This document shows positions 56,856-64,000 of a stretch of 64,000 nt of DNA, piece after piece. Below the pieces are notes generated by a model that saw only the letters and a program-made list of their open reading frames with translations, had not been told where the DNA came from and made no database searches. A program made the translations under genes and the position numbers. The stretch lies in IMG/VR virus record IMGVR_UViG_3300006226_000018, positions 13,224-77,223 of that record, one strand, 5' to 3'. The stretch comes from a virus (lineage: Duplodnaviria > Caudoviricetes). Position 1 is the first letter of the stretch; each line of letters begins with the position of its first letter.

Positions 56856-57512
56856 ATGACACCGCCGGAATTATATCGGCCCCGATTTGTCGGTGAGGAC
56901 CTCACCGATTCTACCAACTATATAGATGTGATCGCGGCTGAACGTATCGTGGTAAGTAGATTCTGCGCCATTGATTCCAATGGCGAAGCTGTCTATGCAA
57001 CACGCGACGGTAAAAAAGCAGCAGGCATATCTGTCACTGAGGCCGAAACTGGAGAAGCAATTCGCTTACAAGTTTTCGGCCTTTACAACAATTTCTTAAA
57101 CAGCTACCCACCGCAATACGGAGATATTTATTACCAAGCAGACTTTGGTTTAGTAATACCAAACCCCCATGCTGACCTTGACGTTTCCATACCTGCTGGT
57201 ATATTAGTAAAACCCGCCACATTACTATTACTTACAGACACCCAATGGTTGGATTACTCCGGTTCGACACCACTTACACCAGCACAGGCAGCAACTACGA
57301 AATCCTTTGTTATGACAGGTGACGGTGCGCAAACGATATGGTATATTAATCATGAGTTAAGTAACCATTGGCCAGTTGTGCAGGTGTATGACAAGGACAC
57401 ACGCGAAATTATTTTAATACACACGGAGTCTATTGATAATGAAAATATAAAAATCGAATCGGACTCTCCCTTGGCGCTAAACAGCGAGTACATCGTAACT
57501 ATCATCGGATAA
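56856..57512 (+). CDS. Putative capsid cement/fibre-type protein
   Basis: N-terminal A.E.I...RF.....G......G...AGIS...AETGE pattern; C-terminal WYINHEL module. Confidence 0.55.
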   Translation: MTPPELYRPRFVGEDLTDSTNYIDVIAAERIVVSRFCAIDSNGEAVYATRDGKKAAGISVTEAETGEAIRLQVFGLYNNFLNSYPPQYGDIYYQADFGLVIPNPHADLDVSIPAGILVKPATLLLLTDTQWLDYSGSTPLTPAQAATTKSFVMTGDGAQTIWYINHELSNHWPVVQVYDKDTREIILIHTESIDNENIKIESDSPLALNSEYIVTIIG

Positions 57513-57559
57513 ACAAAACGGGTGTAAAAGATTGAGGACGCAACCAATCTTTTAAAGAG

Positions 57560-59800
57560 GTGAACGATATGAGAGGAATGAAGGCACTAAGTCGTATTAC
57601 CATGCAGCCGGGATATATCCCGCGAATTGGTAAAGATGTAGCAACTCAGGACACCAGCACCCGATTCCACACCGGCACAGGTGAACCAACCACAATACCA
57701 GCCGGTTTTTGCGTCGGCGACCTGTATTTGGACACGGCAACACAGGCTATGTACAAAGTTGTCGTTGATGACACAAGCACTGCTGATCCCAAAGACCTTA
57801 AATGGGAAAGAGCTAACCTGTTCGGCGGCTCTGTCGGTATTCACTCCGGCAGCGGTGATCCGGCAAAAACGCTTGGCAACGGCAAAGACCTGTATTACAA
57901 AACCGATGCGCCGCAGTCGATTTGGGAAAAGAAACTCAATATCGGCGGCGACCCACTCAATCAGGACGATTATGATTGGGTAAAATTCTTTGACATCGCG
58001 GGTGGCGAATGGCTATCCGGCGCAGGTGATCCTACTGCCAGCGACGGCCAGCCCGGAGATAAGTATTTCAAATCCACCGTTCCGCAGACCATTTGGGAGA
58101 AGAAGCTGAAACCTTCCGGCAATGCTTCTGACCCTGCGGATTACGAATGGGAGAAATTCTTCGACATCAAAGGCGGTTCTGATGTATTCTCCGGCGCGGG
58201 AGACCCCGCAAATACGCTGGGCAATCCCAACGACCTGTACTTCAAAGAGGACTTCCCGAAAAACCTCTGGCAGAAAAAGCTGATTAACGGCGGTGATCCC
58301 ACCGACCCGGCAGATTACGCTTGGGAAAAGATATACGACTTTGACAGCGCACCGGCATTTTTCACCGGTATGGATGATCCTAACTCCGTTGATCCTGACG
58401 ATGCAAAGCTCGGAGATATTTACTTCCGCGAACTGTATCCTCAGTCTATCTGGCAGCTCAAGGATGTCGCAGGAACAGCTACGTGGACAAAGATTTATGA
58501 CCTCGTGGCTCCGGCAACGATATTCGACACCGGTGTTCCCAACAATGCGCTGGGTAATCCTGCCGATACGTATATCAGGACTGACCAGCCGAGAGACATT
58601 TATGTCAAAAATCTCATCGACAGCGGCGACCCCAATGACCCTGCCGATTATGAGTGGGAGAAAGTCGGAACATTTGCACCGTCCGAAATAGCTATTGTTA
58701 ATACAACACCAAACAATAGTACGGGCACACCTTTTGATCTGGTCTACCGCGATGTATTCCCACGTGGTATCTGGCAAAAACAGCTCAAAGATGCCGGTGA
58801 CGCTTCCGACCCCGCAGATTACGAGTGGAAAGAAATTGTACCGCTGGAACATGATGATATATTGCTCGGCGCGACGGTTCCCACACAAGCGTTGGGACTA
58901 CCGAACAGCAAATACTATCGCATGGACGGTATCAATTCCGAGATATACGTTAAAAAGCTCGTTGACGCTGGTGATCCTCTGGACCCCGATGATTATCATT
59001 GGGAACTGGTATTCAAGGCAGCCAGCTCTGATATTCTGTCAGGCGAACAGGAACCGGATAACTCCATTGGTAATCCTCGGGATATTTACTTCAAAACCGA
59101 CCTGCCGCAGTCTATATGGCAAAAGCGTCTAAAGGCCGGTGGTGATCCCGACGATGCCAACGACTACGAATGGGTTAAATTCTTTGACTTCATCGTAGGA
59201 TCGGTACGCAGATACGAAGCTATCGGCGACGGCGTAACCACCGAATTTGTCATTGAACATAGCATGGGCACCAAAAATGTTATCGTTCAGGCGTTTGATG
59301 ATGATACCGGCAGCAACGTAATCATCGACATCGAACGTACCGACGAAGATACCGTTACGTTGTTCACTGACCAGCCCATACCGGATGGTATGAGACTTGT
59401 CGCGCTAATCTCCGACACCATGACCAGCACCATTGCGTTGGTGAAGCAGCCGATACAGTTAAACTTCAACGTACCGGGCAGTTTTGCGCTCGCAGCGAGC
59501 AATACCGTCCTTGAGACGAACAAGATAGCGGTTCGCTCTACTCTGCCGCGCTGGGAGCTCCACAAGGTGTACATACGGGCAATCACTCCGGGAGCTGGGC
59601 CGAACGTCAATATATCCATCGGCGGCCAGCAGGTATTCCCGACTGCGGTGAAAGTTACCGGCGCATGGGTACAGTACATTCTGGACCCGGTATTCATTGT
59701 CGAACCCATCTCCGACGTTGAAATCTCCACATCAGCGGACGCGACAGCAAGCGGACTGGCCATAATTCTCTTTGGCATGGCCAGCAACAACATCGAATAA
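57560..59800 (+). CDS. Repeat-containing fibre/appendage protein (9 x ~55 aa)
   Basis: Repeats of SG.GDP...G.P.D.Y......IW.K.L..GDP.DP.DY.W. Confidence 0.75.
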   Translation: MNDMRGMKALSRITMQPGYIPRIGKDVATQDTSTRFHTGTGEPTTIPAGFCVGDLYLDTATQAMYKVVVDDTSTADPKDLKWERANLFGGSVGIHSGSGDPAKTLGNGKDLYYKTDAPQSIWEKKLNIGGDPLNQDDYDWVKFFDIAGGEWLSGAGDPTASDGQPGDKYFKSTVPQTIWEKKLKPSGNASDPADYEWEKFFDIKGGSDVFSGAGDPANTLGNPNDLYFKEDFPKNLWQKKLINGGDPTDPADYAWEKIYDFDSAPAFFTGMDDPNSVDPDDAKLGDIYFRELYPQSIWQLKDVAGTATWTKIYDLVAPATIFDTGVPNNALGNPADTYIRTDQPRDIYVKNLIDSGDPNDPADYEWEKVGTFAPSEIAIVNTTPNNSTGTPFDLVYRDVFPRGIWQKQLKDAGDASDPADYEWKEIVPLEHDDILLGATVPTQALGLPNSKYYRMDGINSEIYVKKLVDAGDPLDPDDYHWELVFKAASSDILSGEQEPDNSIGNPRDIYFKTDLPQSIWQKRLKAGGDPDDANDYEWVKFFDFIVGSVRRYEAIGDGVTTEFVIEHSMGTKNVIVQAFDDDTGSNVIIDIERTDEDTVTLFTDQPIPDGMRLVALISDTMTSTIALVKQPIQLNFNVPGSFALAASNTVLETNKIAVRSTLPRWELHKVYIRAITPGAGPNVNISIGGQQVFPTAVKVTGAWVQYILDPVFIVEPISDVEISTSADATASGLAIILFGMASNNIE

Positions 59801-59804
59801 TCAA

Positions 59805-59827
59805 TAGGGGGGATTTACTCCCCCCTT
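59805..59827 (+). terminator. G/C hairpin
   Basis: AGGGGGG-ATTTACT-CCCCCCT after the stop. Confidence 0.55.
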
Positions 59828-59836
59828 ACTTCTCCC

Positions 59837-60355
59837 ATGTTTATTTGCACAATACGCACAGAGGAACAGTATCTCAAAGACATTCCGGTTTCATGGTCTA
59901 TGCTGACCGCCGCCGCGCCTAATCCTTCTCTCAATTTCGTGGAAGGTAACGCGATAATTCATGGGGGAGGACAATACGACACAAGCAGTTGGTCATTGCA
60001 TCGTGGTTTAACCGGTACGGGCAGCGGATATTGTAGCGTAGCGAATACCACCATCGTAGACCTCGAAATACAATTCCATAATTTTCAGCTTATTAAAGGG
60101 ATTCAATTTACTGTACCGCAAATACAATACCCACCGCATACTGTAGCTGTCTGGTTGATGAATCCACAAAATACCGCATGGAGGAATCCGTGGAACTTCT
60201 CAGTATCCCGGCCTGTTCCATCTACATCATTCGTTTATGCGTATATGTTTAACTCAGAATGTCAGAAGTCAAAATCTATTTGGTTACGACTTACTTGTTC
60301 TCCAGCAACTTATATAGAATTTGCCAATTTCCATTTTTACAGGCGACAGGTATAG
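59837..60355 (+). CDS. Hypothetical beta-sandwich protein
   Basis: 172 aa; no clear SD. Confidence 0.45.
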   Translation: MFICTIRTEEQYLKDIPVSWSMLTAAAPNPSLNFVEGNAIIHGGGQYDTSSWSLHRGLTGTGSGYCSVANTTIVDLEIQFHNFQLIKGIQFTVPQIQYPPHTVAVWLMNPQNTAWRNPWNFSVSRPVPSTSFVYAYMFNSECQKSKSIWLRLTCSPATYIEFANFHFYRRQV

Positions 60356-60363
60356 GGGTGGTA

Positions 60364-60579
60364 ATGATGCAACATATATTATTTAGCCATAAAACAAAAA
60401 ATATCTCTGTGGAAGCAATCGAAGATTTTGAAGATAACGTAACCCCCGAAGTCATCGAAGAATCTTTTCAATTGTGGCTGCAAGAGCAAACAAAATCTGA
60501 AAATAAGTGGACCCCGTTATCGGATGACGATATATACTTCATGCTCAATTCCGGTCCACCTACAGGAGAAGAAGAATAG
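60364..60579 (+). CDS. Small acidic hypothetical protein
   Basis: GGGGTGG SD before MMQHIL. Confidence 0.5.
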   Translation: MMQHILFSHKTKNISVEAIEDFEDNVTPEVIEESFQLWLQEQTKSENKWTPLSDDDIYFMLNSGPPTGEEE

Positions 60580-61719
60580 TTACCCCTTTTTCCTAAATAT
60601 AAAGCGACTCCCATACGAAACATACCCGGCTGATTGTCCCGGTATCGTATGTAAATGAAATCCAAATATTCCCCCTAAATCTCTGCCGCCGATTGTAGCT
60701 CTGGTAACTCCATTACGAGTCCCTAAACTACAAAAATATGTCGAATCTGACCCACTGGCACTATCCGCTGGAATAAACCCGCATTTATTATTTCCAATAA
60801 CATTTTTTATATTTATATTTTGAAAAGTACCCACTGTATGACCTTCATTACTATACCCGGAACCAGAATTATTAAAATCTTTAAAAGCAAGCGCAATATT
60901 ATTACCACTATTAGCTATACACCCATCCATCCAATAATTGTGACCGCCCCACAAATCTTCTATACCAGCGAATTTCATATGTGACACACCCCGCGCACCA
61001 CCAAAATACATACCACGCTCATTAGATTCCCCGGTATCATAAGACACTCCCCATTCAGGTTGATACCCATGCCCCAACGTGGCATAACTATTGAGGTTAC
61101 GATATTTAACACAATACATGGCCTGCAATAAAGTCATAGTATGGAAAGTAAATAAATCATATCCAGCACCCTTATTTTGCGTTCGAGTGCGCGAATCAGC
61201 CCAAGCCAACTGACCTGTTAAGGCTTTACCACTCAAAGAAGCCATTAGTGTTGTACCGACATTACTTGCCATATACGCACCTACATAAATATAAGGACAG
61301 TCGCCATCGGAATCTATAGTATGTCCATAATGACAAAATCTTGAATCAAGAGATTTAATATTGGGATTATTGGAAACCTTTACAAGTAATTTAGTCCCTG
61401 ATGTATAAATCATATATGCCAGCTTAGGAATTTCAATCATCACATCACCATCATTACCCGATGTAATATCAGCAGGCAGACCATTTTCTCGCTGTGCAAA
61501 ATTATTGGGATTCAAATAATATTGAACTACACCATTTTTAAGCATACAGGGCCGCTCACCAAAAGTAGTTGCCTGCCCATTATCGGTAAATACTGGATTA
61601 TTCGGATTAGAATTATTGAGATCAATTTCTATACCCCAAATAGAATTGGGTAACGGAGGCGGCGGTAAAGACGGGGATGGAGGTACAAAGCCACTTAAAA
61701 ATTCTATGTTCACAGGCAT
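60580..61719 (-). CDS. Putative tail-fibre/receptor-binding protein (379 aa), opposite strand to its neighbours
   Basis: AAGGTGGGAG SD before MPVNIEF; RPCMLKNG...GDVMIEIPK...YVGAY...GIEDLWG pattern seen in clostridial phage tail proteins. Confidence 0.65.
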   Translation of the reverse strand: MPVNIEFLSGFVPPSPSLPPPPLPNSIWGIEIDLNNSNPNNPVFTDNGQATTFGERPCMLKNGVVQYYLNPNNFAQRENGLPADITSGNDGDVMIEIPKLAYMIYTSGTKLLVKVSNNPNIKSLDSRFCHYGHTIDSDGDCPYIYVGAYMASNVGTTLMASLSGKALTGQLAWADSRTRTQNKGAGYDLFTFHTMTLLQAMYCVKYRNLNSYATLGHGYQPEWGVSYDTGESNERGMYFGGARGVSHMKFAGIEDLWGGHNYWMDGCIANSGNNIALAFKDFNNSGSGYSNEGHTVGTFQNINIKNVIGNNKCGFIPADSASGSDSTYFCSLGTRNGVTRATIGGRDLGGIFGFHLHTIPGQSAGYVSYGSRFIFRKKG

Positions 61720-61801
61720 AATTGCTCCCACCTTACATATTTTTCTTTTTAAGATATACTCTAACCAGAAACTATTCATACGTAAAAAGGATGAATACAT
61801 C

Positions 61802-63222
61802 ATGCCGGTAAATACAGATTTTCCTTTTGCACCCCCCCCCCCCTTGAGGGGACGGGACCAACAACTCACTCAATCACAGCGGGTTACGCCGCTACTAACT
61901 CCGGCACAACATTATTCTCCGTATCTGGTGGCTTACTACCAATAACAATAACTAAAATCAGTGGCAACGCTTCATTAACTTGGGATACTACAAACAACCG
62001 AATAGCTATTGCAGCAGGATTAGCAGCAGGATCATACCCGGTTGTATTACGCGCAACAGATATTGTTGGACAAACATTAGACAAAACATGGACCTTAACC
62101 GTAAATCCTGCTCTTGCATGGGGTGGGCCAACAACTCACTCAATCACAGCAGGTTATGCCGCAACTAACTCCGGTACAACTCAATTTTCAGTATCCGGTG
62201 GAACAACCCCCGTAACCATCACAAAAGTTAGCGGTAACGCATCTTTAACTTGGGACAATACAAACAGACGCATAAACATCGCAGCAGGCTTGGCAATGGG
62301 CTCCTACCCCGTTGTTTTACGTGCCACCGATGCTACCGGAAGAACACTTGATAGAACATGGACTTTAACTGTCGCCACCGGAACACCTGTTGGAACAGTC
62401 TTTAACTTCGATTATACAGGTGCTGTACAATCCCGAACACTTCCACCGGGTAAATATCAGTTTGAAGTTTGGGGAGCTTCAATGGCACAAGATGGTCGAT
62501 TTAATTTTGCAAAAGGTGGATATGCACGAGGTACGATAACTTTAACTACATCACGCACATTTTATATTTTTGTTGGACAAGTTGGTGCAAGACGAAATAG
62601 TACAGGCAGTTGGAATGGTGGAGGAAATTCAGGACAGCCATACAGTGAGGATGGCGGCGGTGGCACAGATATTAGATTAGTAAATGCAGCATGGAATAAT
62701 GCAAATAGTTTACGTTCACGTATTTTAGTTGCTGGTGCTGCAGGTGGTTTTGGTCAAACAGGTGCTGGACATGGAGGCGGCTTAGAAGGAACAAGAGGTA
62801 ATAATACTTCACTATGGTCTAGTGCTTTAGGCGGCTATGGTGGTACACAAACAGCAGGTGGTGCTGGTAATAGTGGGGGGCAAGCTGGCAGTTTTGGTAT
62901 TGGTGGTGGAACTCCGGGAGCAAGACGTGGTTCTGGAGCTGGTGGATATTACGGTGGTGGGGCAGGTGTTGGAAGTAGTGGGGGAGTAGCTTATCAATGT
63001 GGTGGCGGTGGTTCTGGATTCTGTTCAGGTCATTCAGGATGTCGTGCAGTTACTTCTGAAACGAGTGGAACACATGTATCCCACGCAAATCACTATAGCG
63101 GCTTAATATTTACTGCAACGGCACTAATCGCTGGTAATGCTTCTATGCCTAATCCAAGAGGTTCAGGTAATATAACAGGTAATCCCGGTAATGGATACGC
63201 ACGAATTACATCGGTAGCTTAA
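61802..63222 (+). CDS. Ig-Ig-Gly-rich putative adhesin/receptor-binding protein, out of frame at a C12 tract (about 473 aa if restored)
   Basis: ATG 61802 frame stops at 61945; the -1 frame from 61843 encodes two 90-aa Ig-like repeats continuous with the ORF-track 62290-63222 Gly-rich domain (FDYTG...GKYQFEVWGA...GGGGTDIRL...RILVAG). Confidence 0.8.
61832..61843 (+). repeat. C12 homopolymer tract
   Basis: Codons 11-14 of the adhesin gene. Confidence 0.95.
61858..62376 (+). repeat. 270-bp period internal duplication (two Ig-like domains)
   Basis: CCAACAACTCACTCAATCACAGC identical at 61858 and 62128; protein repeats align throughout. Confidence 0.9.
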
Positions 63223-63236
63223 AAGGAGGAAATAAA

Positions 63237-63587
63237 ATGCGTTATAAAATGTGGGATAAACAAGAGCCAATTTACATGATGGGACCCGATGAAAACGGAA
63301 AAGTCATGTATACCGCCGAAGAATACATCACCACAAAAGCACCGTGGGTAAATATCCCCGGTGTAAAAGTAATCATCAGCGGACTGACCATCAACGGCGT
63401 TATCTTCATGGAATTTGAACAAGCAGTGGCCGGTTACGTTGCACAAGGATTAGTAATTACCGACAACATGACCGACCGGGAGATTCTTGATGCTATTGAA
63501 GCGTTTGAAGATAATCCTCCCGTCAAACCAACGCCGGAAGAACGTATGGCAGCCGCGCTGGAATTTGCCAATTTACTGAACATGTAA
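63237..63587 (+). CDS. Tail-fibre-associated protein
   Basis: AAGGAGG SD; C-terminal PTPEERMAAALEF typical of genes preceding XkdX. Confidence 0.65.
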   Translation: MRYKMWDKQEPIYMMGPDENGKVMYTAEEYITTKAPWVNIPGVKVIISGLTINGVIFMEFEQAVAGYVAQGLVITDNMTDREILDAIEAFEDNPPVKPTPEERMAAALEFANLLNM

Positions 63588-63602
63588 GGAGGTTAAAATG
63601 TC

Positions 63603-63746
63603 ATGACATTTGAAATTATCAAGTCAAATTTTGACAAAGGCTTATGGACCGCACAAATGGTTGCTGTGGCAGTAACCAAGAACATCATCACTCTCGAACA
63701 ATTCAGGGAAATCACCGGCCAAGCCTACTCAGACATAATCAAATAA
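63603..63746 (+). CDS. XkdX family protein (47 aa)
   Basis: MTFEIIKSNFDKGLWT...V.K..IT.EQFREITG; AAGGAGG SD; not in the ORF track. Confidence 0.8.
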   Translation: MTFEIIKSNFDKGLWTAQMVAVAVTKNIITLEQFREITGQAYSDIIK

Positions 63747-63748
63747 CG

Positions 63749-63775
63749 AAAAGCCCCCCAAATAGGGGGGCTATC
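63749..63775. terminator. Hairpin terminator
   Basis: AGCCCCCC-AAATA-GGGGGGCT; A-run on the left gives a T-run on the minus strand. Confidence 0.7.
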
Positions 63776-63866
63776 TTACTTAACATTTCAATTACATACA
63801 CTTCATATGATAAGATAATCGAACTATGAACACTAAACTAAAAAATATTATATTGAAAATACTATT

Positions 63867-64000
63867 ATGCCCATAACCACAGATTGGTGTGTAGCCAACG
63901 GTAATCCACCAACAATTACACCCCCCCCCCCCATCATCTGCCGGAAGGAAACGCTACCCACAACACACGAAAACAACCCTTTCCACTTATTGCTCCCGTC
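63867..64000 (+). CDS. Partial candidate gene MPITTDW...PPPP with a C12 tract at 63921-63932
   Basis: N-terminus resembles the two MPVN genes; runs off the window; weak SD. Confidence 0.35.
   Translation, partial: MPITTDWCVANGNPPTITPPPPIICRKETLPTTHENNPFHLLLP

Follow-up and report, generated by a model that had tools for sequence, protein, structure and literature searches.

Poly-C tracts behind a common leader in receptor-binding-type genes of an uncultured phage: a candidate contingency switch

Fletchervirus phages of Campylobacter jejuni carry hypermutable polyG tracts of 7-11 G, by which receptor-binding genes become phase-variable (Sørensen et al. 2021, Cell Rep 35:109214; via PMC10579305 and bioRxiv 10.1101/2025.10.21.683753). 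The locus described here lies on a DNA stretch of 64,000 nt, called the window in the following, which comprises positions 13224-77223 of one 77,223-bp virus record. As far as the accounts cited for Fletchervirus extend, both systems have a G/C homopolymer within a coding region for host recognition, and changes in its length switch the reading frame. Several tracts per genome are likewise described there and found here, and mixed progeny, described for Fletchervirus, is proposed for the window phage. Measured against the same accounts, the tracts here are longer (12 to about 30, compared to 7-11), are preceded by one conserved N-terminal leader, which is common to paralogues and to unrelated phages, and double as a polyproline linker; furthermore, the window phage is uncultured and known from sequence alone. 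A phage switch of this kind is already known from Campylobacter phages and the window phage most likely works in the same way.

In T2 and T4, short homopolymers give reversible frameshift variants, a form of bet-hedging (Gomez, Barrick and Waters 2025, bioRxiv 10.1101/2025.10.21.683753). According to the same preprint, repeats of ≥ 6 bp occur in many gene classes and are under-represented in the tail fibres of BASEL coliphages. Unlike in the T2/T4 loci, the long tracts of the window phage are confined to fibre genes. Bacterial contingency loci use poly-G/C tracts in surface genes of Campylobacter, Neisseria and Haemophilus. The locus described here would resemble them in the slippage of a 5'-proximal homopolymer, by which a gene for surface interaction is reversibly turned ON or OFF; unlike the bacterial loci, it is virus-borne and would gate virion proteins. 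The invertible fibre segments of Mu (G) and P1 (C) and the DGR of BPP-1 are programmed systems for the diversification of receptor-binding proteins. The window phage would have this diversification in common with them, here achieved by frame switching and, unlike there, neither by inversion nor by mutagenic retrohoming.

Gene B, its leader and its operon

Gene B starts on the plus strand with a short leader (61802-61831), which consists of the ATG and nine further codons (MPVNTDFPFA) and has an AGGA-type ribosome-binding site upstream. It is followed by poly-C tract 1 (61832-61843, plus strand), which is read as PPPP and determines the frame in which gene B is translated. An earlier note on this DNA had claimed that the gene ends after 47 aa with C12 and opens into a protein of about 473 aa with C13 or C10, and both claims were confirmed. 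In the window assembly, the tract consists of exactly 12 C's, the ATG frame continues behind it as PPPPLRGRDQQ... and a stop codon at 61943-61945 terminates the truncated 47-aa product (61802-61945, plus strand; OFF). The body of gene B, comprising 459 codons (61843-63222, plus strand), is encoded in the -1 frame relative to the ATG and opens with the last C of the tract. Since this frame contains no ATG, GTG or TTG before 62290, the body lacks an independent start and is, therefore, expressible only as a continuation of the leader. Given C13 or C10, a 14-codon start is joined to the 459-codon frame, which reaches 63222, and the product of 473 or 472 aa, respectively, begins with MPVNTDFPFAPPP(P)LEGTGPTTHS. 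Tract 1 corresponds to codons 11-14, and a length change of ±1 flips gene B between the full-length and the truncated product.

The domain content assigned to this body in the earlier note, two Ig-like repeats and a Gly-rich domain, was recovered as well. The two Ig/cadherin-like repeats (nt 61855-62102 and 62125-62372; body residues 5-87 and 95-177) are identical in 70 of 83 residues (84%) and form a direct repeat of 248 nt at the DNA level. An ALK/LTK-type TNF-like/glycine-rich domain follows at about nt 62434-63213; it matches Pfam family PF12810 with body residues 198-457 (139.9 bits against a cut-off of 24.5, E 1.8e-40). The same residues also match PHROGs 1589, 5811 and 7388. An AlphaFold model of gene B (pLDDT 74) was searched with Foldseek and the top matches were the TG domains of LTK and ALK (E 9e-7 to 2e-5), while the repeat part of the model resembles the cadherin-like modules of the SraP adhesin (PDB folds). 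Surface proteins from Oscillospiraceae MAGs and from a termite-gut archaeon commonly contain repeats of this type. A Firmicutes, i.e. Gram-positive, host is probable for the window phage, as suggested by SD-type ribosome sites, XkdX and the Oscillospiraceae-like Ig repeats.

Downstream of gene B, a gene for 116 aa with a strong SD sequence (63237-63587, plus strand) belongs to no known family and is identical in two 2.1-kb contigs from other assemblies of the phage (L002 and L003, see below); it probably encodes a fibre accessory protein. It is followed by a gene of the XkdX family encoding 47 aa (63603-63746, plus strand; PF09693, E 2e-14, 53.8 bits against a cut-off of 23.5). A G+C-rich hairpin of 8 pairs (63752-63772), terminator-like on both strands, closes the operon. 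Domain content and gene position make it reasonable to regard the product of gene B as a putative receptor-binding protein, and a role in adsorption specificity is suggested on the same grounds. Hints in this direction come from the Ig-like repeats and PF12810, from the matches to PHROGs and known folds, from the neighbouring XkdX gene and from a paralogue with a phrog_5302 tail-protein match.

Two further ORFs were observed in this region. A small ORF on the plus strand (60364-60579), which abuts the stop codon of gene A, has the stretches EAIEDFEDN and EFANL in common with the 116-aa gene, and both may be paralogous fibre accessory proteins. Just upstream of the fibre genes, a protein of 746 aa (57560-59800) contains about nine repeats of about 57 aa with a period of 171-174 nt and the motif ...GDP.DP.DYEWEK...; its C-terminal part gave a weak match to a PHROG annotated as virion structural protein.

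The leader and poly-C tracts in paralogues and in unrelated phage contigs

The complete 77,223-bp contig contains three C/G runs of ≥ 9 nt, all of which are poly-C (C12, C12 and C28). Within the window, C runs of ≥ 9 nt yield 8 overlapping matches compared to 0.39 expected, all located in 61832-61843 and 63921-63932. Each of the three tracts sits 19-54 nt past an ATG which opens a leader with the protein motif MP[VI]x[TI][DE]. This motif opens the four fibre-like genes A to D. At the DNA level, the contig contains four copies of the leader motif ATGCC-N-RT-NNNN-AY-N-GA (0.14 expected), each of them at the start of a fibre-like gene. Three of these four host-recognition-type genes (B, C and D) carry poly-C just past the start; gene A does not.

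In gene A, the paralogue without homopolymer (60580-61719, minus strand), the leader MPVNIEFLSGFV precedes PPSPSLPPPPLP, which is encoded with mixed Pro codons, and the gene is always in frame. Its C-terminal domain matches the tail protein phrog_5302 (E 2.9e-35). Gene A shows what appears to be the joined layout, namely leader, Pro-rich linker and body.

Gene C opens with the leader MPITTDWCVANGNPPTIT (63867-63920, plus strand), which is homologous to the right end of an unrelated phage contig (L106). Poly-C tract 2 follows (63921-63932, plus strand), a C12 corresponding to codons 19-22, and the contig ends 68 nt later. The start of the gene C body (63932-64000, plus strand; frame CAT CAT CTG CCG GAA GGA...) lies at the contig end and is of doubtful quality. 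Its frame is fixed by L106, since the flanks align on both sides of the tract, including 60 nt downstream without indel. The body is -1 relative to the ATG; thus, C12 is OFF, and C13 or C10 would be ON.

Gene D is located outside the window on the minus strand. It starts at contig position 169 with the leader MPIQTESLSCFV, and C28 (contig 106-133; G28 when read on the plus strand) follows codon 12, 36 nt after the ATG. The start codon overlaps in a TAATG with the gene for a baseplate/tail protein of 2,281 aa, which itself follows the tape measure gene. A position after tape measure and baseplate genes is usual for fibres. The 105 nt beyond C28 contain stops in all frames and are probably an unreliable assembly artefact. 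Since the sequence at contig ends past a tract has the appearance of junk, neither the length of C28 nor the states of genes C and D can be relied upon.

The same design was found in two further phage contigs. G001 (IMG/VR 3300006226_001015, 53.7 kb) has MPVQIDY+C14 facing outward at its left end and MPVFTEFFT+C30 facing outward at its right end. L106 (Ga0099364_10008048, 14.9 kb) carries MPIQTDFQNSFV+C15 at one end and C18 at the other; the latter is followed by an ORF of 296 codons, whose opening Ig-like repeat is 48% identical to that of gene B. Neither G001 nor L106 contains other long G/C runs, and BLAST found no similarity among G001, L106 and the window phage beyond the Ig-like repeat. 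Junk-like sequence follows the long tracts at the ends of both contigs. In the leaders of genes A to D, L106 and G001, third codon positions vary while the protein is conserved. The leader is, therefore, translated and under selection, and leader and body must be joined in frame at least sometimes. Codon usage is no explanation for the homopolymers, because CCC accounts for 21% of the 991 Pro codons of the phage genome, whose two other Pro runs consist of mixed codons; the probability of four consecutive CCC is about 0.002 per run.

A generic leader plus poly-C pattern gave at least 117 matches in metagenomes. Most of them were rejected as chance matches in AT-rich, eukaryotic-looking DNA without ribosome-binding site or ORF; among the matches listed, the relevant ones were L106 and L043 alone, L043 and L004 being one contig. 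The A/D-type leader pattern yielded 10 matches in high-GC MAGs among 185,579 species genomes, which is about the number expected by chance, and neither a prophage copy nor a host clue was obtained from this search. None of the best 150 of 2,078 gene A homologues starts with the leader, and look-up of the gene A protein (start 61719) gave no exact record. Near relatives crossing tract 1 were searched among the INPHARED phages without a DNA match. The gene B protein gave no locus in IMG/VR and the exact flank patterns gave no match there. The relatives returned by protein searches were all distant, matched in glycine-rich or Ig-repeat sequence and lacked the leader, and no full-length ON allele of gene B was present in the protein databases searched. 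The contig of the relative P0134 contains no poly-C tract, and no homologues were found for the gene C-like protein of L106.

Tract lengths in assemblies and competing explanations

Other assemblies of the phage (JGI 3300002469, ENA ERZ27257348 generated with MEGAHIT, and ENA ERZ27257302) were recovered by exact-protein look-up. Their flanks differ from the window at 0-1 positions over 2-10 kb; the three assemblies may share the same or sister samples and are not to be counted as independent populations. Every one of them breaks inside each tract it covers. At tract 1, where the window assembly reads through C12, the left 74.9-kb contig ends with C13 in JGI (_10000018, L142) and with C12 plus TT in MEGAHIT (L141), and the right 2.1-kb contig starts with C7 in JGI (L003) and with C12 in MEGAHIT (L002). 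At tract 2, the window has C12 and 68 further nt, and the 2.1-kb contigs of JGI and MEGAHIT both end with C12. ERZ27257302 covers neither of these two tracts. At tract 3, the window contig has C28 and 105 further nt, and the contigs end with C13 (JGI), C14 (ERZ27257348) and C11 (ERZ27257302). All assemblies found lack the sequence from tract 2 to tract 3, which contains the bodies of genes C and D, and the contigs of this phage, of G001 and of L106 each end 0-106 nt past an outward-facing poly-C tract.

Thus, the tracts are real and short-read assembly cannot resolve them. Tract 1 is at least C13, an in-frame ON length, in the JGI contig compared to C12 in the window and in MEGAHIT, which supports that both lengths are backed by some reads. 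This length heterogeneity is deduced only from contig ends and one C12 vs C13 difference, and both the breaks and the difference could stem from slippage during PCR or from Illumina dephasing within long C-runs. C12 (OFF) can be taken only tentatively as the modal state of gene B.

Two side observations concern sequence next to homopolymers. Position 61849, six bases past tract 1, is G in the window and T in L002 and L003 (Gly vs Trp in the ON frame); it is the sole difference over 2,077 nt, with no indel, and may be a dephasing error beside the homopolymer. Furthermore, four matches to the generic pattern (L005, L027, L055 and L082 from Ga0123357, Ga0131853, Ga0123354 and Ga0123355) represent one AT-rich locus matching by chance, which looks non-coding and is possibly host-animal DNA. 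Its poly-C run comprises 16, 9, 11 and 20 C's in the four samples, whereas the flanks are otherwise near-identical; therefore, homopolymer length varies between these datasets.

We consider it probable that slipped-strand contingency tracts control the production of alternative receptor-binding proteins; gene A would be expressed constitutively, genes B, C and D stochastically. A selected hypermutable tract is favoured because one leader precedes three paralogous fibre-like genes with the only long G/C runs of the genome, which codon usage cannot explain, and because leader plus poly-C recurs in two unrelated phage contigs. Judged from this setting, the tract is a built-in feature and no random error. 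The earlier note had proposed that a receptor-binding gene is switched by slipped-strand mispairing at a contingency tract, and the proposal is supported by the anatomy of the locus and by comparison, that is by the three tracts, the common leader and the two unrelated phages.

Alternatively, tract 1 might be a fixed in-frame C13 polyproline linker from which one C was dropped by the assembly, in which case gene B would be constitutive and no switch would exist; this is unlikely. A miscount agrees with the exact +1 C needed by both C12 tracts (genes B and C) and with the C13 at which the JGI assembly ends at tract 1, and assemblies do handle poly-C badly, with junk past the tracts at contig ends. 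However, C12 is present in the window assembly, the MEGAHIT contig passes through C12 into TT, and the length of homologous tracts is not conserved (C12, C14, C15, C18, C28 and C30). Gene A does have a Pro-rich linker after its leader as a normal part of the protein, but a linker needs no pure CCC, as the mixed codons in gene A and in the other Pro runs and the CCC share of 21% demonstrate. Besides, a true C13 would be mutable, too.

The full-length product could also arise by recoding at a fixed C12, either through programmed -1 ribosomal frameshifting or through slippage of the RNA polymerase, which would result in a low constant fibre level. We regard this as quite improbable. The heptamer C CCC CCC within the tract fits the slippery pattern X XXY YYZ, but 12 to 30 C's are far beyond the need of a slippery site, and no stable RNA structure is found downstream (fold z -0.89 for 61844-61943 and +0.74 for 63933-64000). 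Genes B and C are both -1 relative to the ATG, as recoding would need, and polyproline stalls ribosomes; yet the residue modulo 3 differs at homologous tracts (12 vs 18, 28 vs 15) and no function is apparent for the 47-aa zero-frame product. For transcriptional slippage, most documented cases concern A/T runs.

Decay of gene B into a frameshifted pseudogene which is being lost would account for its being out of frame in the only assembly crossing tract 1, but is very improbable given a frame of 459 codons without stops or further indels, strongly scoring domains, a design which recurs in paralogues and other phages, and intact partner genes (116 aa and XkdX), the open frame and the partner genes being points which the earlier note had raised against decay and which both hold. 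An invertible fibre segment was excluded by the lack of inverted repeats, since the region 57000-64000 contains only arms of ≤ 24 nt with 71-94% complementarity, i.e. at chance level; likewise, no invertase or reverse transcriptase was found among the proteins annotated.

Proposed switch and its implications

According to the contingency reading, a switchable gene would consist of three parts: a short translated leader (M-P-V/I-x-T/I-D/E-aromatic), the poly-C tract encoding polyproline, and a variable binding body. Slipped-strand mispairing during replication would add or remove C's. Tract lengths of 1 mod 3 (C10, C13, C16) would join leader and body (ON), whereas translation would end after about 47 aa at other lengths (OFF). 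Genes B, C and D would switch in this way and gene A would be fixed ON. A burst would then contain virions with differing sets of binding proteins, which would amount to bet-hedging on variation of the host surface. If the leader docks all four proteins at one baseplate site, the switch would be a choice among competitors. We infer that the variation in tract length is biological and heritable in nature.

A more far-reaching version remains tentative and is, in our estimate, rather doubtful. Leader and poly-C might form a portable switch cassette, common to unrelated phages of one ecosystem and usable before any binding domain, with stochastic sets of receptor-binding proteins competing for one baseplate site. 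Such a cassette would comprise a conserved docking peptide of 7-12 residues and a hypermutable C-run of up to about 30 nt; with a run of this length, the frame would, therefore, be near random in each generation.

For sequence data, poly-C tracts systematically break short-read viral assemblies, and all contigs of these phages stop at such a tract. Gene callers then report key host-range genes as missing or truncated. For phage biology, the switch, if confirmed, would mean that homopolymer phase variation of receptor-binding proteins reaches uncultured phages beyond those of Campylobacter, in a different ecosystem and probably with Gram-positive hosts, and that a modular arrangement of leader, poly-C and exchangeable body gates several fibres together.
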